64,000 nt of DNA from Candidatus Undinarchaeales archaeon (GTDB lineage: Archaea; SpSt-1190; JASMDC01): NCBI GenBank assembly GCA_030753015.1, contig JASMDC010000006.1, positions 1-64,000 on the forward strand. The letters run 5' to 3'. Both the position numbers and the translations under genes were made by a program. Positions within the stretch are counted from its first letter, which is position 1, and each line of letters begins with the position of its first letter. A model generated the notes under the pieces. It saw only the letters and a list, made by a program, of their open reading frames with translations, searched no databases and was not told where the DNA came from. Below are positions 20,621 through 52,208 of the stretch, one piece after another.

Positions 20621-22873
20621 ATGCCCGACAGGGGCTACGTGGAGAACCCGCTCATCAGACCGAAGGCCATCGAGCGCCGACTCTATCAGGAGACCCTCCT
20701 CGGTACCGCCGCGGGCGCCAACACACTTATCGTGGCCCCGACAGCCCTTGGGAAGACCGTCATCTCGGTCCTGCTCGCCACCCTCAAGCTCACCGCAGAG
20801 CCTGAGACGAGCGTCGTGGTTATGGCACCGACCCGGCCCCTCGTCCAGCAGCACGCCGAGAGCTTCCGCGCCATGACGACCCTGGAGGAGGATCGGATCG
20901 TGGCGCTCTCCGGCCTTACCTCGCCCGACGCGCGGGCCCGTTTATGGGAACGGGGGCGTGTGGTGTGCGCCACCCCGCAAACTGTCCAGAACGACATCCT
21001 CGCAGGTCGGGTACCACTGCGCACCATCGCGCTGATGGTCTTCGACGAGTGCCATCGGGCCGTGGGCGAGTATCCGTACGTATTCATCAGCGAGCGTTAC
21101 CGTCAGCTGGGTGCAGCGCCCCACATCCTCGCGCTCACGGCCTCTCCCGGGAATGATCGGGAGACCATCGATGAGGTGTGCGCCAACCTCGCCATCGAGA
21201 AGGTGGAGATCCGCACCGAGCGGGATCGTGATGTCGAGCCATACGTGAACCCAATCACCGTCGAATGGCGGCGGGTGGACCTACCTGACAGCTTCGTCAA
21301 GGTGAGGACCTATCTGGATGCCGTTATCAAGCGTCGGCTCGTCTGGCTCAAGGGCCAGGGACTTCTCCGGACGGCCGATCCCCGCGAGGTCCGACGAAAG
21401 GACCTAATCGCGCTCCAGGCACGGATACGGAAGCGGTTCGGTGAGGGCGCCGATCAGTCGGTCTACCGCGCAGCGTCGTACATAGCCGCTGGTCTAAAGC
21501 TCCTCCACGGTGTGGAGCTGCTGGAAAGCCAAGGGATGCGTCCACTCGAGCGCTATCTTCACAGGTTGGAGGGTCAGGCGGCCACGGTGAAGGGAGTGCG
21601 CATCCTCCTGGAGGAGCCTGAGATGCGTAATGCCATCGTTATCACCCGACACCTGGTCGAGGCCGGTATCAAGCACCCCAAGCTCGCAGAGCTCATCACC
21701 ATCTTAAAGGAGGCGCTGGGCTCTGGTGGGCGTGTCATCGTGTTCACACAGTACCGTGACTCGGTGAGCGCGGTCGTGGAGGCGCTGGCGGCCGCCGGGA
21801 TCGAGTCGGAGAGGTTTGTGGGCCAAGCGGGAGATACGGGCCTTACCCAGAAGAAACAGCTCGCGACGCTCGAGCGGTTCCGCGACGGGGCGTTCCCCGT
21901 ACTAGTGGCGACCTCGGTGGCCGAGGAGGGGCTCGACATCCCCGAGGTGGAGCTCGTTGTGTTCTACGAGCCGGTCCCCAGCGCAGTGCGGACCATCCAG
22001 CGGAGGGGAAGGACCGGACGCAAGCGGGCCGGGCGGATGATCGGGCTCATTACACGGGGGACCCGCGACGAGGGGATCTACTGGGCATCAGTGCACCGGG
22101 AGCGGCGGATGCGTGAGGAGCTCATCGTCGCACAGGCGGCCGGTACGGACCTTCCTGAGCAGGACCGTGCCCAAAGCACACTGGACCGGTTCGATCGGGC
22201 ATCACAGGAACAGCCATCCGTAGTGATCTACGTAGATACCCGCGAGTCGAGCGCCTCTCTGGTACGCGCGCTCACTAGGGATTCCGAGGTCGAGGTTCGT
22301 ACAAAGCGACTGGTGGTCGCCGACTTCCTGGTCTCCGAGAAGGTCGCAGTGGAGCGGAAGCGCACTGTGGACTTCCTCCAGTCGCTCATCGATGGCCGGC
22401 TGCTCTCCCAGGCCCAGCGCTTGGCCGAGGCCTACCCGATCCCTCTGATCGTGCTCGAGGGTGGTGATCTCTACGGACAACGCAACCTTCACCCCAACGC
22501 GATACGTGGGGTGATCGCCTCGCTCACCGTGGACTTCGGCATCGGGATCATCCCTACACGGGACGAGGCCGACACCGCAGCGTTCTTGCTGACCCTGGCC
22601 AAGCGGGAGCAATTGGACCATCCCCGTCGCGTGGCGGTGAAGGGCAAGCGCCGCGTCGATACCCTCGCCGAGCAGCAGGAGCTCGTTCTCTGCTCGTTCC
22701 CTCATATCAACATGACACTGGCCAAGCGGCTCCTTGAGCATTTCAGCACGGTCGCAGCGGTTCTCTCAGCATCCGAGGACGAGCTGAGGAAGGTGCATGG
22801 CATCGGCGAACGGCTCGCAAAGGAGATCGCTTCGGTGTCCGGTACCCGGTACGAGGCGCGTAAACGCCGGTGA
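20621..22873 (+). CDS. hef: Hef helicase/ERCC4 nuclease
   Basis: APTALGKT, DECHRA, LTASPG, TSVAEEGLDIP, QRRGRTGR, VDTRE...ERK..DFLQS, C-terminal HhH. Confidence 0.95.
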   Translation: MPDRGYVENPLIRPKAIERRLYQETLLGTAAGANTLIVAPTALGKTVISVLLATLKLTAEPETSVVVMAPTRPLVQQHAESFRAMTTLEEDRIVALSGLTSPDARARLWERGRVVCATPQTVQNDILAGRVPLRTIALMVFDECHRAVGEYPYVFISERYRQLGAAPHILALTASPGNDRETIDEVCANLAIEKVEIRTERDRDVEPYVNPITVEWRRVDLPDSFVKVRTYLDAVIKRRLVWLKGQGLLRTADPREVRRKDLIALQARIRKRFGEGADQSVYRAASYIAAGLKLLHGVELLESQGMRPLERYLHRLEGQAATVKGVRILLEEPEMRNAIVITRHLVEAGIKHPKLAELITILKEALGSGGRVIVFTQYRDSVSAVVEALAAAGIESERFVGQAGDTGLTQKKQLATLERFRDGAFPVLVATSVAEEGLDIPEVELVVFYEPVPSAVRTIQRRGRTGRKRAGRMIGLITRGTRDEGIYWASVHRERRMREELIVAQAAGTDLPEQDRAQSTLDRFDRASQEQPSVVIYVDTRESSASLVRALTRDSEVEVRTKRLVVADFLVSEKVAVERKRTVDFLQSLIDGRLLSQAQRLAEAYPIPLIVLEGGDLYGQRNLHPNAIRGVIASLTVDFGIGIIPTRDEADTAAFLLTLAKREQLDHPRRVAVKGKRRVDTLAEQQELVLCSFPHINMTLAKRLLEHFSTVAAVLSASEDELRKVHGIGERLAKEIASVSGTRYEARKRR

Positions 22874-22876
22874 ACC

Positions 22877-23524
22877 CTACACCTCTCCGACAGGTGCCTC
22901 GACGTCGGTCTCTTCCGCGACAACGACCTTCTCATCGACTGAGGGCTCGGCTATAGCTTCCCCCTCCACAGGGAGCCCCATCATGATGCGTCCTTTCTTC
23001 GATGAGACAAGGTAAGAGATCACCATGAAGCACCAGAAGAGCACGGGCACCAGGATGATGATGTAGATGATGATGAACGCCCGTCGTGCCCCCATAGAGA
23101 TGCGGAAGGACAGCGGCTCGAGCGTCGTTTCGATCTTCTTGTCGTCCTGACGCACAGTGGGCGGAGGGATCTCCACGTCTCCGTACTTCGTCGCCTCGAG
23201 GTCGATGGTAAAGGTCGTGCTCTTCTTCGGCTGAACGGGGACCTTTGGGAACATGATGGTGAGGACCGATGTCGTCGGTTCGAAGGATGTCCTGAAGTCG
23301 GGTTTGATACCGGTCACGTTGATCTTCGAAAGGGGGATGTCCTGGACCAGCTCTACCTTGATTGCGGCGGGATCGGGATTGGTTACCGTGTACGTGAGCT
23401 TGAGCCCCTCACCCTCGCGCGGCTCGTCCGTTGTAAGGGGGGCGCGCACCACTTCGACATCAGCGGCAGTGCACAGCATGCAGACTAGCATGAGGATTGC
23501 CAGAAGGTGACGCGCTGTGACCAT
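22877..23524 (-). CDS. Exported Ig-like protein with a C-terminal TM anchor
   Basis: Signal peptide, beta-rich body, TM AFIIIYIIILVPVLFW. Confidence 0.7.
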   Translation of the reverse strand: MVTARHLLAILMLVCMLCTAADVEVVRAPLTTDEPREGEGLKLTYTVTNPDPAAIKVELVQDIPLSKINVTGIKPDFRTSFEPTTSVLTIMFPKVPVQPKKSTTFTIDLEATKYGDVEIPPPTVRQDDKKIETTLEPLSFRISMGARRAFIIIYIIILVPVLFWCFMVISYLVSSKKGRIMMGLPVEGEAIAEPSVDEKVVVAEETDVEAPVGEV

Positions 23525-23540
23525 GTCGGGGGATCGTGCT

Positions 23541-24659
23541 CTAACCTTTAAAAAAACTCCGGATTCGGGCACGTAGCCCCTCGCTTTCGTACCAGCACTG
23601 TGGGTCCTCGGAAAGATGATCACCGGTCGCACCGTACGCGATGGCGCGGCAGCCGCCGCAGTGGAAACGATACAGACAGGGACCGCATCTTCCCCTCAAG
23701 CGGTCCCGATCACGCAGTTCCTCCAGTAGGGGCGCATTGTGCCACACATCCCCCAAGTCGTCCTCATGGAGGTTACCTATGGGGATGGGAAGGCGACGGC
23801 AGGCCAGCAGCGTTCCATCGGCCAGGAGTGCCAGACCCCCTGTCCCGATGGAGCACCCCCCGGCAGAGTGACGGGCCCGGGCGAGATAGCACGCGCCGAC
23901 AGGTACGCCGCGGGCAAGTTGCCACAGGGGATCACGGGGAGGGATGTCCATTTCGCCTTCAAGTTCACACCTATGGTGCAACAGGTCCGTGAAGAGCTCT
24001 TGCGTACCTTCTCGGTCCAGGAGCTCATCGACAAGGTCTTTTCCCCGGCCCCAGGGGACGAGCCGAGAGAAACCCACACGGTCGATCCCTTCCTGATGGC
24101 AAGACTTGAGCACCGCTTCGACCTCGTCCACGTTGAGCTTGCTCACGGTCATTGAGGCCGTCGTGCTCACACCGGCGTCACGGAGGTGGGCGAGACCGCG
24201 CATGGCATCGCACCAGGCACCCTCTCGTCCACGTAGCCGGTCATGGCTCGCTTCGGTACCGTCGATGCTCACCTGCACTGCTTGGACGCGCATGCGCGCG
24301 AGTGCGGAGGCGATCTCTGCCGTGATGAGCGTTCCGTTGGTAAGTACCTTGACACCGAGTCGGTGTTTCCGGGCCGCCTTGATGAGCGAAAGGAGGTCCT
24401 TGCGGAGGAAGGGCTCACCCCCGGTGAAGTGGATGCGTCCCCGTAATCCCTCATTCTGCAAGAACCGTGCATAACGGTCGATGATGGAGATGCACTCCTC
24501 GGTGTCGGATTCATCACCGCCCGCCCCATAGTCGCCGTAACAATGCTTGCATGAGAGGTTGCACCGTTTAGTTACATGCCACTGCAGGAAGAAAGGCTCC
24601 CGGTTACGCGGGCACCTAGTCGGCGCATCCACCACAGCTGTCACACGATCCGCAGTCAT
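23541..24659 (-). CDS. Radical SAM/SPASM protein (putative peptide maturase)
   Basis: FFLQWHVTKRCNLSCKHCY (CX3CX2C), FTGGEP, TNGT, VSIDG; SPASM GC.IG...AC...CGPCLYRFHCGGCRA...DPQC; start ATG 24659 or GTG 24632. Confidence 0.92.
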   Translation of the reverse strand: MTADRVTAVVDAPTRCPRNREPFFLQWHVTKRCNLSCKHCYGDYGAGGDESDTEECISIIDRYARFLQNEGLRGRIHFTGGEPFLRKDLLSLIKAARKHRLGVKVLTNGTLITAEIASALARMRVQAVQVSIDGTEASHDRLRGREGAWCDAMRGLAHLRDAGVSTTASMTVSKLNVDEVEAVLKSCHQEGIDRVGFSRLVPWGRGKDLVDELLDREGTQELFTDLLHHRCELEGEMDIPPRDPLWQLARGVPVGACYLARARHSAGGCSIGTGGLALLADGTLLACRRLPIPIGNLHEDDLGDVWHNAPLLEELRDRDRLRGRCGPCLYRFHCGGCRAIAYGATGDHLSEDPQCWYESEGLRARIRSFFKG

Positions 24660-24771
24660 TGCAATCGCTGCAATCAGAGCAGCTCCCAGAGCCGTAGATC
24701 GCTGAGCGTATGATGATGAGAACAATGAGGATGACGAAGAGTATCGGTACGAGGAGGATGGTTAGAGCCAT
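24616..24771 (-). CDS. 51-aa Cys-rich putative RiPP precursor (hydrophobic N-terminus plus (CXX)7 core)
   Basis: Below the ORF-track cutoff. MALTILLVPILFVILIVLIIIRSAIYGSGSCSDCSDCNDCGSCDSCGGCAD*; GGAGG upstream of the ATG; overlaps the radical SAM start. Confidence 0.8.
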   Translation of the reverse strand: MALTILLVPILFVILIVLIIIRSAIYGSGSCSDCSDCNDCGSCDSCGGCAD

Positions 24772-24794
24772 CGGTATTCCCTCCGGTGATAATC

Positions 24795-24803
24795 TATTTA
24801 AAT
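24795..24803. promoter_or_regulatory. Putative bidirectional TATA element
   Basis: TATTTAAAT lies about 25 bp from both divergent starts (24771 and 24825). Confidence 0.5.
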
Positions 24804-24824
24804 GTGTATCGACATGTATGGGCC

Positions 24825-25043
24825 GTGAAGTTCATCGACCTCCTCATTGTGCTGGTGGTCATCGCGCTCATTGTCGTCGTAATCTCCAATGCAACCGGGG
24901 GCAGTACCTACTACTATGGTTCAGGTCGTCGCCGAAGCCGCTGGTCCTCAGTGAACGTATTCCACTGGGGGAGCAGCAGATCGAGCGGTACCAGATCCCG
25001 GGGGTACAGTGCCACCAGATCCGGTGGTAGTGGGATTAAATGA
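24825..25043 (+). CDS. Small membrane peptide with a Gly/Ser/Arg-rich tail
   Basis: VKFIDLLIVLVVIALIVVVI...GSSRSSGTRSRGYSATRSGGSGIK*; directly upstream of DUF350. Confidence 0.7.
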   Translation: MKFIDLLIVLVVIALIVVVISNATGGSTYYYGSGRRRSRWSSVNVFHWGSSRSSGTRSRGYSATRSGGSGIK

Positions 25044-25078
25044 CGTATGTTATAATTGATACAAGGAGGATATGAATA

Positions 25079-25303
25079 ATGGCAAGCCCTGCACTAGAGG
25101 ACATCGCGATGACACTCATCTACAGCGTCGTTGCGGTACTGATCATGGCCTTCGCCCTTCCTATGGCGTTCAAGATCTTCGACTGGATCACCCCCATCGA
25201 TGAATGGGAGGAGATCAAGAACAAGAACATGGCCGTGGCCATGTACGTGTCGGCCGCTTTCATTAGCTTCGCCCTTGTTATCGTGGGCGTGCTCATCTCC
25301 TAG
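25079..25303 (+). CDS. DUF350 membrane protein
   Basis: FKIFDWITPIDEWEEIKNKNMAVAM pattern; AAGGAGG RBS. Confidence 0.85.
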   Translation: MASPALEDIAMTLIYSVVAVLIMAFALPMAFKIFDWITPIDEWEEIKNKNMAVAMYVSAAFISFALVIVGVLIS

Positions 25304-25602
25304 AGGCGTCGACGGGACCATCGGGCACACACGCACCCTAGCGTGAGCTGCCCCTTGCATGACATCCCAACCAAGCATCACAACGAGACGCTAAGGAAGC
25401 CCCCCGATTCAACGGCGGAGGAATTGGCGGAGGGAAGGGAGCAGTATCCTCACTGTGGGTTCATCCCCGGTTACAAGCCCTCCTTGTGTATAGGTAGTGT
25501 GAGCCGACGGGATCATGGTCGTTACTCAGATCCATATTCAAATGTGCGAATTAGTAATATTCAGGCACAGGGACACTGCTCAGAAGAGATGATGGGGGGA
25601 AA

Positions 25603-26826: not shown

Positions 26827-26854
26827 ACACCGGACGACCGGAGGTTTTTTATTG

Positions 26855-27790
26855 ATGGGCCGCCATCAAGTTCCCGTGAAATGTGGCCGTATCTTCAAAG
26901 ACCGGCGAGGGGAGGGTGACGTTCCACAGCAAGTGAACATGGTCTTTGCGGCTATCATTGTCACCGGACTTGTGCTCAACATCGCACTGATGCCCGTTAT
27001 CGATGAAAAGGAGCCCTCTCCGGACCTCGTGGACGAGGAGCGACCAGAGGTCATGCGGAAGGTGGCGCGAAAGATGACGGGGAAGAAGACGGCCCGCATC
27101 CTTTCGGACAACCGTACTGGGGACCCTGCTCTTTCCGAACGCGAGCGCCTACGGGAGGATATGAGGACCACGAACAAACGTGTGGCCCTTTCCGTCCCAT
27201 CGCTTCTTTCTATAAGTAGATCGGGGCCTGAGCGGAGCGTCGTCGTGGCCATTATCAACGATGGCGACGACCGGCGGTGCTTTTGCGTCTATCCGCACCT
27301 TGTATCGCTCGACGGACCGGGCTCGTGGGGGTACACGATAGACCGCGACCTCGACTCACTCCACGAGGAGTGGTGGGAGGGTGTGGACGATCCCGACACC
27401 GTTAAGGCGCTCATGAGCGCATCTCCTCGCGAGTGTTGGGCTGGCGACGGCAAGTGCAGTCCGAACTTGTGGTTCGAAGGAAGGGCCGACATCACGGTAC
27501 CACCCGGGAGCCGGGCATCGCTCGGGATGCTCCTGGACATTTCCTCTTCCGCTCGTGAGGCCCCTGTGGGGCGATGGAGTTTCATCGTGGACGTTTGCGA
27601 GTACCGGCCCCCGTGCGAGGAATGGGACCCTACCGATCCGTCCATATGCGTGGAATGGATGGTGGGCTGCGAGGCCTGTATGCCGGAACTTTGCCGCCAG
27701 GAGCCCGTGTACGCTTGCGACGGGAGGACAAAAGACGACTGCTATTCGTGGTACGACAGTGAACGGTTCATCGTTAATCTGGAAGAATAG
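26855..27790 (+). CDS. Cys-rich pilin-like protein, diverged paralog of 27878-28702
   Basis: RRG^ followed by a hydrophobic helix; CFCVYPHL..LDGPGS, CWAG.GKC.PN.WF, WYDS. Confidence 0.7.
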   Translation: MGRHQVPVKCGRIFKDRRGEGDVPQQVNMVFAAIIVTGLVLNIALMPVIDEKEPSPDLVDEERPEVMRKVARKMTGKKTARILSDNRTGDPALSERERLREDMRTTNKRVALSVPSLLSISRSGPERSVVVAIINDGDDRRCFCVYPHLVSLDGPGSWGYTIDRDLDSLHEEWWEGVDDPDTVKALMSASPRECWAGDGKCSPNLWFEGRADITVPPGSRASLGMLLDISSSAREAPVGRWSFIVDVCEYRPPCEEWDPTDPSICVEWMVGCEACMPELCRQEPVYACDGRTKDDCYSWYDSERFIVNLEE

Positions 27791-27877
27791 CGGGGCCCCG
27801 GGGCACTATCTAACACACAGCCCTAACAAGAGCTTTTTAAACGGTAAGCGTGTTCACGGTCTATTAAGGTGAATACC

Positions 27878-28702
27878 ATGAGAAAAGGTTTCCTGAACAA
27901 GAGGGGTACCATCCAGATGTCTTTCACTTTCTTAGTGATGGTTATCCTGGGCGGTCTGATGCTGACCGTCGGTGTAAAGTACATCAGCAAGATGGCAAGC
28001 AGCATCATGGGGATGTCGGATGAGGTTTCGGACACAATGCGTGAGCGCATCCTTAACGATATCAAGACCAAGAACGAGAAGGTCATGTTGTCGATCCCCA
28101 CCTCGATCAAGATGACACGAAAAGAGCGGCGGCGTGACATCTCAGTGGTCATAAATAATATCAGCCCAGAGACCAAATGCTTCTGCGTATTCCCGCACCT
28201 GCTGGGCCTTGACGGCCCTGGCTCGTATAGCATTGAGGTCTCCAAGAGCTCCATGCAGGGATCGCTGTCAGCGGGGACCGACTGGACCTCCGTGACGGAT
28301 GAGGACCAGTTGAAGAAGAAGCTGAAGCGGTACACGCCCCAGGCGTGTTGGGCCGGTGCTGGTAAGTGTAAGCCCAACAACTGGTTCGTGGGCGAGGCCG
28401 GTATCCGCGCAGATGGCGAGCAGGCCAACGATGTCAAGGTCTCCCTTGAGCTCCCGCGCGACCCGCTCGAGGCCCCTAACGGCCGCTGGGCGTTCACGGT
28501 CGAAGTGTGCGAGTACAAGCCCTCCTGCCCTGGTGGCTTCGAGGACGGTATCTGCAAGGAATGGGGCGAGGGCTGCAACGCCTGTATCCCCGAGAACTGC
28601 CGTCAGAACCCCGTGGACAAGTGTCAGGGGAGCAACGCGCAGAGCTGCTACCTCTGGTACGACTCGGCGGCTTTCCACCTCCAGGTCCACAGCGAAGAGT
28701 AG
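27878..28702 (+). CDS. Cys-rich class III signal-peptide (pilin-like) protein
   Basis: NKRG^TIQMSFTFLVMVILGG; Cys-rich C-terminal half. Confidence 0.75.
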   Translation: MRKGFLNKRGTIQMSFTFLVMVILGGLMLTVGVKYISKMASSIMGMSDEVSDTMRERILNDIKTKNEKVMLSIPTSIKMTRKERRRDISVVINNISPETKCFCVFPHLLGLDGPGSYSIEVSKSSMQGSLSAGTDWTSVTDEDQLKKKLKRYTPQACWAGAGKCKPNNWFVGEAGIRADGEQANDVKVSLELPRDPLEAPNGRWAFTVEVCEYKPSCPGGFEDGICKEWGEGCNACIPENCRQNPVDKCQGSNAQSCYLWYDSAAFHLQVHSEE

Positions 28703-49524: not shown

Positions 49525-50898
49525 ATGATGCAGCGGGTCAAGGAGACCGAGTCCGTGTGTCCGCGGTGCTTGCACCGCATCCCTGCCGTCGTGGACGAGG
49601 AGGGCGGGCGGGTGCTCATGCGCAAGACATGCCCGGACCACGGGCCCATCACGGTCGTACTTTCCTCGCGCTCCTGGTACTATCTAGGCCTCGCTGATTT
49701 CTATCGAGGCCTTGCAATCGGCGGGAAGAAGGAAGAGCTGGAGTACAACTTCTACGTCACCATGCGCTGCAACATCAATTGTCCCATCTGCTTTACCAAT
49801 GCCAACGTCACAAAGTACGCTGATCCCTCTCTTGAGGATGTGGGGGCGATGATCAAGGACATGCATGGTGTCCGCCTATGCCTCTTCGGCGGTGAGCCCA
49901 CGGTGCGCAAGGACCTGCCGGACATCATCCGTCTCATCCTTCGATCGGGCAATATCCCCGTGCTCTATACCAACGGTATCAAACTAGAGGACTGTGCCTA
50001 TCTGGAGGAGCTCAGGGATGCGGGGCTTGAGGAGGTCCACCTCCAGTTCGACGGTTTTGAGGAGCGTGTCTACAAGGTGCTCCGCGGCAAGCCCATGGTC
50101 GCCTCCAAGACCAAGGCCCTGGAGAACCTCGAGGCCCTGGGGATCCCTACGGTGCTCGAGTACACCGTGGCCCACGACCTCAACGAGGACCAGATGGTGC
50201 CCACGTTCGAGTACTGCATCCCGCGACCGCACATTCGGGGGCTGTTCTTCCGCTCCTATGTTGTCATGGGCAAGGCCGGGCTCGAGCACGCCAGCTCGGT
50301 GGCAATCGAAGATATGATCGATCGGTTCGACGAATCCACGGGAGGGCGCATCTCGCTGAGGAGCGTGTTCGAGCTCCAACGGCTACTATATGCTTTCTAC
50401 AAGCTGGTGCACCTGCGACGATGTCACTACAGCCAGTACACGTTCATGTACCGCACACCTGGTGGTGGCTACAAACTGGTGAACGAGCTGTTCGACGTCC
50501 ATGGCATCCAGACGGCTTTGGACGCCTTCCGTCACAGGATCCGTGAGGGCTCGCTCCTGGCGATCCCGCTGTTCCTTGCACAGGTCGCGCGGCGCGCGGC
50601 CCATCCGCGCTCACTGAGGTTCATCCGTGATGCCCTGTCGGTGATGACGGGCAAGCTCGTCAAGCACGAGATGTTCTCCTATGGTGAGTCTGGAGTGTCG
50701 GACCGGCTCTTCATCGTTGGATTCGGCGCTATGTGCGAGCCCTACTCGTTCGATTTCCAAGTAGCCGATGCCTGTGATCGGCTCCAACTCACTGATGAAG
50801 GTACACAGATGATGCCCTACGCCCACCTTGAACTCGAGCGGCGAAGCCTTGAGGCCCGGGAGAATCCAGAGGAGGGGATATGGCTCTCCTGCGGGTGA
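49525..50898 (+). CDS. MJ0619/Tes-like radical SAM protein with an N-terminal Cys/His metal-binding domain
   Basis: TESVCPRC...KTCPDHG; VTMRCNINCPICF; GGEPT; TNG; LQFDG. Confidence 0.82.
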   Translation: MMQRVKETESVCPRCLHRIPAVVDEEGGRVLMRKTCPDHGPITVVLSSRSWYYLGLADFYRGLAIGGKKEELEYNFYVTMRCNINCPICFTNANVTKYADPSLEDVGAMIKDMHGVRLCLFGGEPTVRKDLPDIIRLILRSGNIPVLYTNGIKLEDCAYLEELRDAGLEEVHLQFDGFEERVYKVLRGKPMVASKTKALENLEALGIPTVLEYTVAHDLNEDQMVPTFEYCIPRPHIRGLFFRSYVVMGKAGLEHASSVAIEDMIDRFDESTGGRISLRSVFELQRLLYAFYKLVHLRRCHYSQYTFMYRTPGGGYKLVNELFDVHGIQTALDAFRHRIREGSLLAIPLFLAQVARRAAHPRSLRFIRDALSVMTGKLVKHEMFSYGESGVSDRLFIVGFGAMCEPYSFDFQVADACDRLQLTDEGTQMMPYAHLELERRSLEARENPEEGIWLSCG

Positions 50899-52208
50899 CC
50901 CTGGGTACCTGCCCCACCTGCCTCGCGGCGGTGCCGGCATCGCTTGTGCTGGAGGACGGGATGGTGCATCTGGTCAAACACTGCCCGGAGCATGGGGATA
51001 CCAGCACTCTTGTGGCCAAGGACGGTCCCGCGTGGGCCGAACTGGCCGCCTTCTACGAGGAGATGATGGCGCCTCTGCCCGGTATAGGTGACAAGAACCT
51101 GAACCTTCCACTCACGGACCGGTGCAATCTTGCCTGTCCTATCTGCTTCACCCGCTCTGGACCACGTCGCGGGGATGAGCGGGAGCCTTCTCCCGGTGAC
51201 GTCGCGCGGCTGCTTGCGGGCGTCACCGGGGCCAAGGTCCAGCTCTATGGCGGTGAGCCCACGGTCCGCAACGACCTACCGGACATCGTGACCGCGGTCA
51301 TCGCCTCCGGGAACGTGCCCGTGCTGGCCACGAACGGCCTCCTCCTGGCCGAGGAGGGTGTGCTGGACGAACTGCGTGCAGCAGGCCTGGGTGAGGTCCA
51401 TATCCAGCTCGATGGTCTATCCGGGCAGGGTGACAATACCCTCCGGGGCAGGGACGTGTCAGCGGTAAAACGCAAGGCTCTGGAAGCTCTGGAGAAGGCT
51501 GGCATGCCCACAGGCCTGGAGTGCACGTTGGCCCGCGATGTGAACGACGGAGCAGTTGCAGAGCTTCTGACCTACGCGCTGGACCATCACTTCGTACGTG
51601 GTGTGTTCTTCCGCTCCTACGGCCATCTTGGGATTGCCGGGCTCGGTCCGACGGCGCGGCTACGGGTCGAGGAGGTCGTGTCCATGGTTGCGGACGCCTC
51701 TAACGGACGTATTACTCCCGCGGGCTGGACCACCGTCCAGAAGGCGCTCTACGCTGCGTTCAACCTCCTGGGTGTCCCCAGCTGCCTGTACAACCAGTTC
51801 TACCCTGTGCTCCGCCGTCCCGATGGCACGTGGACTGCTGCCGAAGAGCTTGTCGACGTGGAAGGGCTAGATGACGCGCTGGAAAGGTTCCGTGTCACCC
51901 GCCATCGCTTGAGATGGGGGGCCGCCGCTCAGCTGGCCACCGAGGTGTTGCCGCTTGTGCGGGAGCCGGGTCTCGTACGCACCCTCCTATCCGCTGCGGT
52001 CCAGCCACTGGCAGGAGTAGGACCCTTGGATACCCTGGCCACGCCCGGTCTATTGGTAGTTGGCGCTGGCTCGTTGTGTGATCCCGACACCTTCGATCTG
52101 ACCTATTCACTACGGTGCGATGCAGGGCTGGTGGTGCGCGATGGTGAGCCATGGCTCACCCAATCCCTGGACACCCTTCGGGAGGAGCGGCGGCATGGTG
52201 AGGGCTAG
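50880..52208 (+). CDS. Second MJ0619/Tes-like radical SAM paralog
   Basis: CPTC...KHCPEHG; LTDRCNLACPICF; GGEPT; IQLDG. Confidence 0.8.
   Translation: MALLRVTLGTCPTCLAAVPASLVLEDGMVHLVKHCPEHGDTSTLVAKDGPAWAELAAFYEEMMAPLPGIGDKNLNLPLTDRCNLACPICFTRSGPRRGDEREPSPGDVARLLAGVTGAKVQLYGGEPTVRNDLPDIVTAVIASGNVPVLATNGLLLAEEGVLDELRAAGLGEVHIQLDGLSGQGDNTLRGRDVSAVKRKALEALEKAGMPTGLECTLARDVNDGAVAELLTYALDHHFVRGVFFRSYGHLGIAGLGPTARLRVEEVVSMVADASNGRITPAGWTTVQKALYAAFNLLGVPSCLYNQFYPVLRRPDGTWTAAEELVDVEGLDDALERFRVTRHRLRWGAAAQLATEVLPLVREPGLVRTLLSAAVQPLAGVGPLDTLATPGLLVVGAGSLCDPDTFDLTYSLRCDAGLVVRDGEPWLTQSLDTLREERRHGEG

Follow-up and report, generated by a model that had tools for sequence, protein, structure and literature searches.

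A cysteine-repeat membrane micro-protein and its overlapping radical SAM/SPASM gene suggest an undescribed cysteine-tail modification of membrane proteins

The locus described here lies in a 64,000-nucleotide stretch of DNA from a Candidatus Undinarchaeales archaeon (assembly GCA_030753015.1, contig JASMDC010000006.1, positions 1 to 64,000 of the forward strand), and by the window we mean this whole stretch. Read along the minus strand, the locus presents a TATA-like box, a 51-codon open reading frame (ORF), a gene for a radical S-adenosylmethionine (SAM) enzyme with a SPASM domain, and a gene for a 215-aa membrane protein (Table 1). The 51-codon ORF encodes a membrane micro-protein that ends in a seven-cysteine repeat, and the pairing of such a tail with such an enzyme, which we also find elsewhere, suggests an as yet undescribed modification of cysteine tails on membrane proteins. 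The source genome comprises 3.85 Mb in 117 contigs (60% G+C; completeness 98.9%, contamination 5.0%), and DNA near-identical to the window is present in marine and seawater metagenome runs from several studies.

Table 1. Features of the locus and of its immediate surroundings, in window coordinates. G001 is the sole same-genus genome and L114 a metagenome contig; TM, transmembrane.
Feature	Position	Strand	Basis and remarks
TATA-like box (TTTAAATA)	24795..24802	-	centre about 27 nt 5' of the peptide ATG; kept in the window, G001 and L114
51-aa micro-protein gene: TM helix, R22, 8-residue linker, (C-x-x)7 tail	24616..24771	-	ORF and dN/dS
Radical SAM/SPASM gene	23541..24659	-	starts at ATG 24659 (372 aa) or at GTG 24635 (364 aa); PF04055, PF13186
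215-aa membrane protein gene	22877..23524	-	begins 16 nt after the radical SAM stop; PF13584 BatD match
72-aa ORF, GTG start, divergent	24825..25043	+	TM helix and Gly/Ser/Arg/Tyr-rich tail without Cys; adjoins the TATA region

The micro-protein ORF opens with ATG, and its product has a hydrophobic stretch of 19 residues (residues 3-21; nt 24709-24765), followed by R22 and, beyond the linker, by a tail (residues 31-51; nt 24619-24681) in which seven Cys (Cys31, 34, 37, 40, 43, 46 and 49) recur with a period of exactly three, with Ser, Asp, Asn and Gly between them and C-A-D at the end. The stop codon (24618-24616) falls within the enzyme ORF, and the two genes overlap by 20 nt or 44 nt, depending on whether the enzyme begins with GTG 24635 or with ATG 24659; the latter codon is conserved in G001 and in the homologous protein P0001. 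An initial annotation of this DNA had proposed the ORF with its sequence, its helix, its Cys register and its overlap with the enzyme gene, and all of these hold. The two-gene pair that it envisaged is, moreover, conserved and translationally coupled.

The ORF stands at the same place in the two available comparators, G001 (L002:1365-1520; enzyme 90% identical) and L114 (1429-1581; enzyme 93% identical). Compared pairwise, the three ORFs differ at 13-16 of 156 nt; in the peptide frame these differences amount to 9-11 synonymous and 2-3 non-synonymous codon changes, and the same substitutions read in the other two frames would produce 11-14 non-synonymous changes. The ratio of non-synonymous to synonymous divergence (dN/dS) is 0.043-0.078 at a dS of 0.40-0.45 in the three comparisons, and that of the enzyme gene is 0.097 at a dS of 0.49 (against G001). 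The amino-acid changes are conservative and confined to the TM helix, the 21-residue tail being identical in all three, and within the overlap the substitutions leave the peptide unaltered but change the possible N-terminus of the enzyme. Purifying selection acts on the peptide frame, including the part shared with the enzyme gene. Because the ORF is kept in two relatives under a dN/dS of 0.04-0.08 with an invariant tail, these comparisons indicate that it is a real gene. When all 3.85 Mb of the genome were scanned in six frames, 134 loose matches came up, and among them this ORF alone has a regular C-x-x repeat tail.

How the gene is expressed appears to differ from what had been supposed. 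In the window, the GGAGG ribosome-binding site of the initial annotation does stand 8 nt 5' of the ATG, whereas the relatives have GGATTG (G001) and GGTTGG (L114) instead. Because GGAGG is not conserved while the TTTAWATA motif about 27 nt 5' of the ATG is both conserved in all three sequences and rare (4 occurrences in the 64-kb window, where 0.21 are expected), a leaderless or near-leaderless archaeal transcript would fit better than a Shine-Dalgarno start, and the TATA-like box is the probable promoter of a peptide-enzyme operon. Protein collections hold few traces of the peptide: HMMER against 1.84 billion representative proteins returned one partial homologue (P0121, a 59-aa protein that seems to be truncated where its contig ends and that matches the helix and the first part of the tail at 73% identity), and a word-index search of 5.8 billion proteins returned no relative, which implies that gene callers mostly miss this gene. 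The peptide matches no Pfam family and has 0 NCBIfam matches at E <= 1. Its exact sequence is contained in the ESM Atlas, where the nearest clusters score 0.78-0.79, below lead level.

Both Pfam domains place the enzyme in the radical SAM/SPASM superfamily (PF04055, 89 bits against a cut-off of 29.5; PF13186, 31.2 bits against 21.5), and its CX3CX2C motif (C25, C29, C32) and its seven SPASM cysteines (C261, C279, C317, C320, C326, C329 and C347) are invariant in 17 aligned sequences. Because the radical SAM core begins at about residue 17, there is no room for an N-terminal recognition element (RRE) of the kind that binds precursors of peptides that are made by ribosomes and modified after translation (RiPPs), and we consider the enzyme to lack one. 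It reaches no NCBIfam equivalog cut-off, its scores in bits (cut-offs in brackets) being 205 for AhbD (500), 199.5 for NirJ2 (500), 183.5 for TIGR04053 (395), 167.3 for the ACGX-system enzyme TIGR04340 (400), 155 for GeoRSP (400), 154.8 for SbtM (TIGR04082; 350), where only positions 199-515 of 516 align, 100 for StsB (625), 88 for PapB (340) and 84 for SkfB (300). It is a member of no curated family. The resemblance to FibroRumin systems noted in the initial annotation is not upheld: across the whole genome TIGR04136 (cut-off 400 bits) has only a 36-bit match, on contig C40, with none at the enzyme gene (E <= 0.001), and no NCBIfam model covers the peptide. The closest solved structures by sequence, SkfB (85 bits), PqqE (52) and CteB (5wgg; 41), all modify peptides, and a weak match leads to the lipid-modifying archaeal GDGT/MAS radical SAM enzyme (7tol, 32 bits). 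A predicted complex of the enzyme with residues 22-51 of the peptide (17-row alignment, three 4Fe-4S clusters, SAM) scored 0.02 and 0.23 against a mark of 0.32, values that we count neither for nor against binding.

To place this pair in a wider setting we collected homologous loci from relatives (30), from GTDB with one genome per species (at least 80) and from JGI metagenomes (at least 80). An ORF was counted as tailed if its last 40 aa held at least three Cys and at least 70% small residues and its stop lay between 200 nt before and 130 nt after the radical SAM start. Among the matches listed, 27 of 139 loci pass this rule, at observed distances of -46 to +33 nt, and the three loci of the window lineage miss it only through helix residues that dilute the tail. 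When downstream and divergent tails are included, 37 of the 133 labelled loci among the matches listed, the window's own being one of them, carry the label (six further loci at contig edges are unlabelled), and in 30 of these 37 (the 27 strict ones and the window's three) the tail ORF ends between about 50 nt before and 33 nt after the radical SAM start. The usual upstream tail is built of Cys, Gly and Ser, with Cys at every third or fourth residue in (CSS)n or (CGG)n fashion, and frequently ends in ...CGGCGG(D). All nine locus rows of the window clade and its sister clade with DNA examined (three of them from the window lineage) have a Cys-repeat tail that ends at the enzyme start, so that these close homologues, which the initial annotation had allowed might be without an upstream Cys peptide, do possess one. 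No Cys tail was found at the archaeal AhbD-like loci L003-L023.

The carriers of the tails vary. In bacteria they are usually membrane proteins of 150-550 aa with the Cys tail at their end, belonging to TIGR04222 in five of ten tested, to DUF2207 in L091, L039 and L036, and to TPM in L062 and L102; the module is widespread in bacteria, and the archaeal framing it had first been given was too narrow. Missed by the first filter, loci from Nitrospirota are those with the highest similarity among the GTDB matches listed (40-42% identity); their upstream proteins of 486-499 aa have a sparser Cys tail and a stop that abuts the radical SAM start. A Campylobacteraceae locus (L079:2352-2492, plus strand) holds a 46-aa ORF in which a Gly/Ser linker joins a TM helix to CGG repeats and which overlaps the radical SAM start, which makes it an independent minimal version on the same plan as the window peptide. 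Among 36 Cys-tail loci compared, the radical SAM gene and the carrier are the only shared genes, and there is no conserved protease or transporter. A 248-aa ORF without NCBIfam match follows the radical SAM gene in nine of the 36 (e.g. L059:3583-4329; TIGR04222-type) and may be an accessory gene of TIGR04222-type loci. Six of 58 protein-only homologues have N-terminal extensions rich in Ala and Val, which would fit a Cys/Gly/Ser repeat read out of frame, as happens in the window's own 394-aa ORF; this evidence is indirect. Altogether, the genes point to a two-gene module in many, mostly anaerobic, bacteria and some archaea, and many of the listed hosts are anaerobes to judge from the titles of their records. 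A gene for MNIO, the enzyme family linked to such tails in earlier work, is present in one of 11 genomes with a radical SAM-linked tail, the source genome having none (one of ten others); a TIGR04222 scan of the source genome gave no match, and the control genomes gave none either.

In an unselected FastTree of 178 rows, the window clade, to which P0002 (55% identical) belongs, has a clade of 21 rows as its sister, and the Cys-tail label is clustered, with nine changes for 37 positives, a value as low as which was reached in 0 of 500 shuffles. For reduced trees of 77-98 rows, chosen partly with the labels known, we added the AhbC/D-like proteins of the genome, true SbtM (from a phylum in which 29 of 401 genomes have one above the cut-off), SCIFF maturases and anSMEs. 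A careful IQ-TREE of 77 chosen rows (LG+G4; bootstrap not fully settled) recovers a 61-row clade (UFBoot 96, SH-aLRT 98) in which all Cys-tail enzymes stand together with SbtM and with a group whose small upstream peptides are of other kinds; anSME and the SCIFF maturase fall outside (99/98), and the AhbC/D-like enzymes form a separate clade together with their archaeal relatives (95/91), so that the clustering with AhbC/AhbD/NirJ entertained at the outset is not what the tree displays. SbtM is the top NCBIfam match of the sister-clade enzymes L036 and L039, and on the tree it appears to be the nearest of the four characterised families placed there, at most a near neighbour. A nesting of SbtM among the Cys-tail enzymes, seen in two quick trees, was withdrawn after an approximately unbiased (AU) test. 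When eight SbtM loci were scanned for neighbouring SbtA-like GG(U/C)G peptides, a single questionable match turned up, and no exemplar of ACGX (TIGR04340/04341) or CrpC (TIGR04463) exceeded the cut-offs in 151 archaeal genomes. We also note a separate radical SAM/SPASM clade from Syntrophales and related bacteria (L045, L046, L048, L051, L065) that is preceded by a different small ORF, basic, with one or two Cys and ending in ...SG(R/K)QC(F/L)S or ...GKKCLSCKG, which is probably another unnamed precursor family.

We propose a model in which the locus makes a single-pass membrane micro-protein whose (C-x-x)7 tail is modified by the SPASM enzyme encoded in the overlapping gene. Because R22 follows the helix, the positive-inside rule would place the tail in the cytoplasm, where the oxygen-sensitive enzyme can probably reach it. 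As the enzyme has no RRE and the peptide no leader, recognition may proceed through the repeat itself, aided by co-translation at the membrane. Pfam searches of the neighbouring genes found no protease, transporter or RRE protein, as had been stated in the initial annotation, and because there is no protease or exporter nearby, the modified tail would remain tethered to the membrane; with no separate leader either, a membrane-retained product is the natural reading, as was first supposed. That the tail is the substrate of the enzyme and stays on the membrane we consider likely.

For the chemistry we favour, while giving it somewhat less than an even chance, the conversion of Cys to thiooxazole by this enzyme-substrate pair. 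Hydrogen would be abstracted at the Cys C-beta and each Cys, with the preceding carbonyl, would be oxidised to a 5-thiooxazole with a loss of 4 Da per Cys, as by SbtM. The modified tail would then chelate metals at the membrane through its poly-thiooxazoles, and the pair would parallel the MNIO/bufferin route without depending on O2. Of the two-gene module described above, the window locus would be the minimal form. Two lines of reasoning lead us there: SbtM is the nearest characterised relative and the (CGG)n tails resemble its GGUG motif, and similar TIGR04222 tails have been proposed as substrates of MNIO enzymes, the bufferin members of which make thiooxazoles. SbtM is described as converting Gly-Cys/Sec in GGUG into a thio(seleno)oxazole with removal of hydrogen from the Cys C-beta, the product showing -4 Da, a band at 304 nm and a thiol that can still be alkylated (PMC9204691). 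TIGR04222 proteins with Cys-bearing Ser/Gly tails are proposed substrates of MNIO enzymes near the bufferin enzymes, which turn Cys into copper-binding thiooxazoles (PMC12452194). The rarity of MNIO genes among genomes with radical SAM-linked tails (one of 11) is in keeping with this, and thiooxazole is the one Cys product documented for both SbtM-type and MNIO enzymes in the texts consulted. More tentative still is the general proposal that radical SAM enzymes provide an O2-independent route to membrane-tethered, metal-binding tails of poly-thiooxazole or similarly oxidised Cys, possibly as the anaerobic counterpart of the MNIO/bufferin systems in many anaerobic bacterial phyla and some archaea, with a bare (C-x-x)n repeat being read without leader or RRE.

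Several points weigh against the thiooxazole model and its generality. The evidence for the peptide-enzyme pair is genomic, and the link between MNIO and TIGR04222 is itself bioinformatic only. The enzyme reaches 155 bits on the SbtM model, below AhbD (205) and NirJ2 (199.5), and is without the first ~198 positions of the SbtM profile. In the tree the SbtM branch is long (1.5 changes per column), so that a common clade is supported and not its inner order; under the AU test a tree in which SbtM lies apart from the 72 remaining rows did better (log-likelihood +34.6, p-AU 0.907), and the trees are without sequences of CrpC, PapB, QhpD, ACGX, GeoRSP, MftC and PqqE. The tail in the window is rich in Asp (C-S-D, C-N-D, C-A-D), and CrpA/CrpC, described as the only tested archaeal pair of a Cys-rich protein and a SPASM enzyme, acquires ranthionine at C-X-X-Q/D (PMC13692751). 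Among the matches listed, 96 of the 133 labelled loci are tailless, and since the GTDB and JGI scans were based on two enzyme sequence motifs, the counts describe the sample.

The Asp-rich tail and the CrpA/CrpC precedent lead to the strongest alternative, the thioether reading of the initial annotation, namely that the same pair installs thioether crosslinks, ranthionine to Asp/Asn or sactionine to C-alpha, and thereby forms a compact, protease-stable knot tethered to the membrane. Several SPASM enzymes that act on multi-Cys substrates form thioethers, CrpC on CrpA among them, with QHNDH cited as a further protein example, and the seven SPASM Cys would leave one iron site of an auxiliary cluster open, as proposed for thioether synthases (PMC13692751). 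In the window an Asp or Asn stands two residues after four of the seven tail Cys, a further Asp is C-terminal, and the nearest structures (SkfB, PqqE, CteB) are of peptide-modifying enzymes. However, most related tails consist of Cys, Gly and Ser only, which leaves them without a side-chain acceptor such as Asp; those of L039, L040 and L042 are near-pure (CSS)n or (CGG)n and have no Asp, Glu or Gln bar a frequent terminal Asp. Moreover, the SCIFF maturase, the sole thioether family in the tree, lies well outside the clade (99/98), the scores for PapB (88), StsB (100) and SkfB (84) are below those for SbtM (155) and ACGX (167), the CrpC family model has no match in the source genome at E <= 1e-40, and the enzyme is without an RRE domain. 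We regard thioether formation as unlikely on balance, yet as a serious contender to thiooxazoles.

Alternatively, enzyme and peptide might function together with the tail modified in neither way: the tail could bind metal like a metallothionein, donate a cluster to the three-cluster enzyme, or tether the enzyme to the membrane through an auxiliary cluster for another substrate such as a lipid, or its Cys could undergo other chemistry such as formylglycine formation, as carried out by anSME. Metals bind readily to C-x-x-C repeats, a conserved adjacency shows that two genes are functionally linked and not in what way, and the lipid-modifying enzyme 7tol is among the weak PDB matches; Cys oxidation of the anSME type is mechanistically close to the SbtM reaction (PMC9204691). 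However, a plain anchor or ligand would not require that four to nine evenly spaced Cys be retained by unrelated carriers in different phyla; genes that overlap from stop to start, as here, typically encode a precursor and its maturase; anSME branches well away from the clade; and no gene beyond those for the radical SAM enzyme and the carrier is common to the 36 Cys-tail loci, as another substrate might lead one to expect. Taken together, this makes an unmodified or otherwise modified tail improbable.

Less probable again is an adjacency without functional meaning, in which an AhbD/NirJ-type tetrapyrrole enzyme, or else some unrelated maturase, lies beside an independent membrane micro-protein. 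The enzyme's best NCBIfam matches are indeed AhbD and NirJ2, some homologues are named 'AdoMet-dependent heme synthase' by JGI, and the many tailless loci counted above would fit; but both scores are far under the cut-offs of 500, the genome holds a far better AhbC-like (514 of 650 bits) and AhbD-like (417 of 500) tandem on contig C62 that belongs to the separate clade (95/91) and not to the 61-row clade (96/98), and loci labelled with a Cys tail group together strongly on the tree. Finally, that the 51-codon ORF is an untranslated chance frame over the 5' region of the radical SAM gene deserves next to no credence: the lack of a gene-caller product in the 5.8-billion-protein collection, the unconserved GGAGG and, weakly, the lack of an RNA-library contig over the ORF (contigs cannot show absence) are set against a dN/dS of 0.04-0.08 at a dS of about 0.4, the burden of changes in the alternative frames, overlap substitutions that spare the peptide and not the enzyme, a conserved TATA box at the right distance, the divergent partial homologue P0121 and analogous tails in 34 other loci among the matches listed.

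Returning to the model of a tail modified in place, it is instructive to compare the pair with described systems. SbtM/SbtA of Geobacter and relatives combines a SPASM radical SAM enzyme carrying three 4Fe-4S clusters with Cys/Sec flanked by Gly (PMC9204691), and the window enzyme falls with SbtM in the 61-row clade (96/98). The substrate in the window differs in being a membrane-anchored seven-Cys repeat without selenocysteine, and its enzyme lacks the N-terminal ~198 positions and stays below the 350 bits over 516 positions by which SbtM is recognized. CrpC/CrpA of Methanococcus voltae (TIGR04463) is likewise an archaeal seven-Cys SPASM enzyme beside a Cys-repeat protein, with a modified protein and not a released peptide as product and a suspected role in metal handling; CrpC, however, carries an RRE, and in CrpA a leader-like N-terminal part 47 residues long accompanies 17-residue repeats that contain C-X-X-Q/D (PMC13692751). 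The window pair lacks an RRE, has a TM helix where a leader would be and repeats its Cys with a period of three, and its enzyme has neither the 525 bits nor the RRE that mark the CrpC family. The screen for archaeal Cys-rich proteins in that work took proteins of at least 100 aa, which made it blind to a 51-aa peptide (PMC13692751). The systems of MNIO (DUF692) with TIGR04222 proteins and bufferins resemble ours in that membrane proteins end in unstructured Ser/Gly tails with Cys, proposed to be modified in place (PMC12452194). There the partner is an MNIO and here a radical SAM/SPASM enzyme; the window peptide has no TIGR04222, DUF2207 or TPM domain and shares with such carriers only the tail and a single TM helix.

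The ACGX system (radical SAM enzyme TIGR04340, target TIGR04341), defined by comparative genomics only, also joins a SPASM radical SAM enzyme to a short peptide. In its target, Cys residues stand close together with small residues between them. For the whole clade TIGR04340 ranks among the better matches (153-177 bits), but the window enzyme reaches 167 of 400 bits, its peptide has no match to TIGR04341 (cut-off 28 bits; 0 matches in the source genome), and these model scores set the two apart. The maturases of sactipeptides and ranthipeptides (SCIFF/CteB, PapB, SkfB) are SPASM/Twitch radical SAM enzymes for Cys-rich ribosomal peptides, PapB having the motif CX3D, but they come with leaders, RRE domains and usually proteases or exporters, none of which is at the window locus. 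AhbD, AhbC and NirJ share the SPASM architecture and length of our enzyme and give the highest raw NCBIfam scores, yet these lie far below the cut-offs, archaeal AhbD-like loci have no Cys-tail genes, and the window enzyme has neither the 500 bits nor the grouping of this family, nor the score of a FibroRumin maturase. In a strict RiPP system a protease removes a leader or follower and the product is released; with an enzyme without RRE and no protease or transporter among the neighbours, a RiPP-like modification of a membrane protein fits better here, although a distant protease may still cleave the product. The pair would thus work like a Cys-directed SPASM precursor-maturase pair outside FibroRumin, AhbD/NirJ, SbtM, ACGX and CrpC, distinguished from them by a TM helix or membrane protein in place of a leader, a period-three repeat with small residues, and no RRE, protease or exporter.

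Both halves of this idea have precedents: in-place modification of TIGR04222 Cys tails was published in 2025 (PMC12452194) and a SPASM enzyme that modifies an archaeal Cys-rich protein in September 2026 (PMC13692751). We found no link in the literature between these tails and radical SAM enzymes; none is mentioned in the text of PMC12452194, and the supplements of PMC12452194 and PMC13692751 may list such pairs. If our model is correct, a large unnamed group of SPASM radical SAM enzymes acts on the Cys/Gly/Ser tails of TIGR04222, DUF2207 and TPM proteins, and the low-complexity tails of these common and unexplained membrane families would gain a biochemical meaning. It would also explain why one third of the genomes with TIGR04222 genes are reported to have no MNIO gene (PMC12452194), as a second, unrelated enzyme may serve the tails under anoxia. 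Such a division of labour is hinted at by anSME, a radical SAM enzyme of anoxic sulfatase maturation. An oxygen-dependent counterpart of anSME exists. The 51-aa archaeal and 46-aa Campylobacteraceae peptides would be minimal leaderless substrates on which the chemistry is directly testable, the former being the smallest natural substrate and an ideal model, and a leader-independent Cys-modifying enzyme would be attractive for peptide engineering. Gene callers and screens with size thresholds, such as the 100-aa limit of the 2026 archaeal screen (PMC13692751), overlook genes of this kind.

The 215-aa protein downstream of the enzyme has a signal-like N-terminus, a BatD/DUF11-like beta domain (PF13584, 25 bits against a Pfam cut-off of 24.1), a TM helix and an acidic tail. 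It is 83% identical at the same place in G001, and no counterpart was found at the other loci examined or by tblastn beyond the genus; its gene is a possible third operon member. The idea that it is a split-off ectodomain of DUF2207-type carriers was dropped (BLASTP against the L039 carrier, E = 59). The divergent 72-aa ORF is kept at 90-93% identity in G001 and L114, differs in G001 by a single in-frame codon indel, and has no Pfam or NCBIfam match. Its plan of a TM helix and a low-complexity tail echoes that of the Cys peptide and the TATA region is common to both, so that it may be linked to the Cys-peptide system. Beyond it lies a DUF350 gene (25079-25303, plus strand). RNA-labelled contigs from three runs of two studies cover 24891-25330; among four runs compared with 22800-25400, none lies over the peptide or enzyme gene, although contigs cannot show absence.

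Further along the window, a Hef-type protein with DEAD/Helicase_C, ERCC4 nuclease and HhH domains (20621-22873, plus strand), convergent to the operon, is an ordinary archaeal repair gene, and two adjacent paralogous genes (26852-27790 and 27869-28702, both on the plus strand) encode proteins of 312 and 277 aa with an N-terminal hydrophobic segment, shared Cys-containing motifs and no Pfam match. The genome is rich in radical SAM genes, with 35 matches to the AhbD model at E <= 0.001, among them a cluster of about six on contig C40 (~159000-172400) and two more in the window (49753-50217 and 51111-51548, plus strand). Finally, the six-frame Cys scan of the genome revealed many giant ORFs of 1000-8360 aa with Cys-rich segments of the C-x-x-C-G-D-G type (e.g. 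C40:16585-41667 and C51:104057-116536), which look like giant extracellular proteins.

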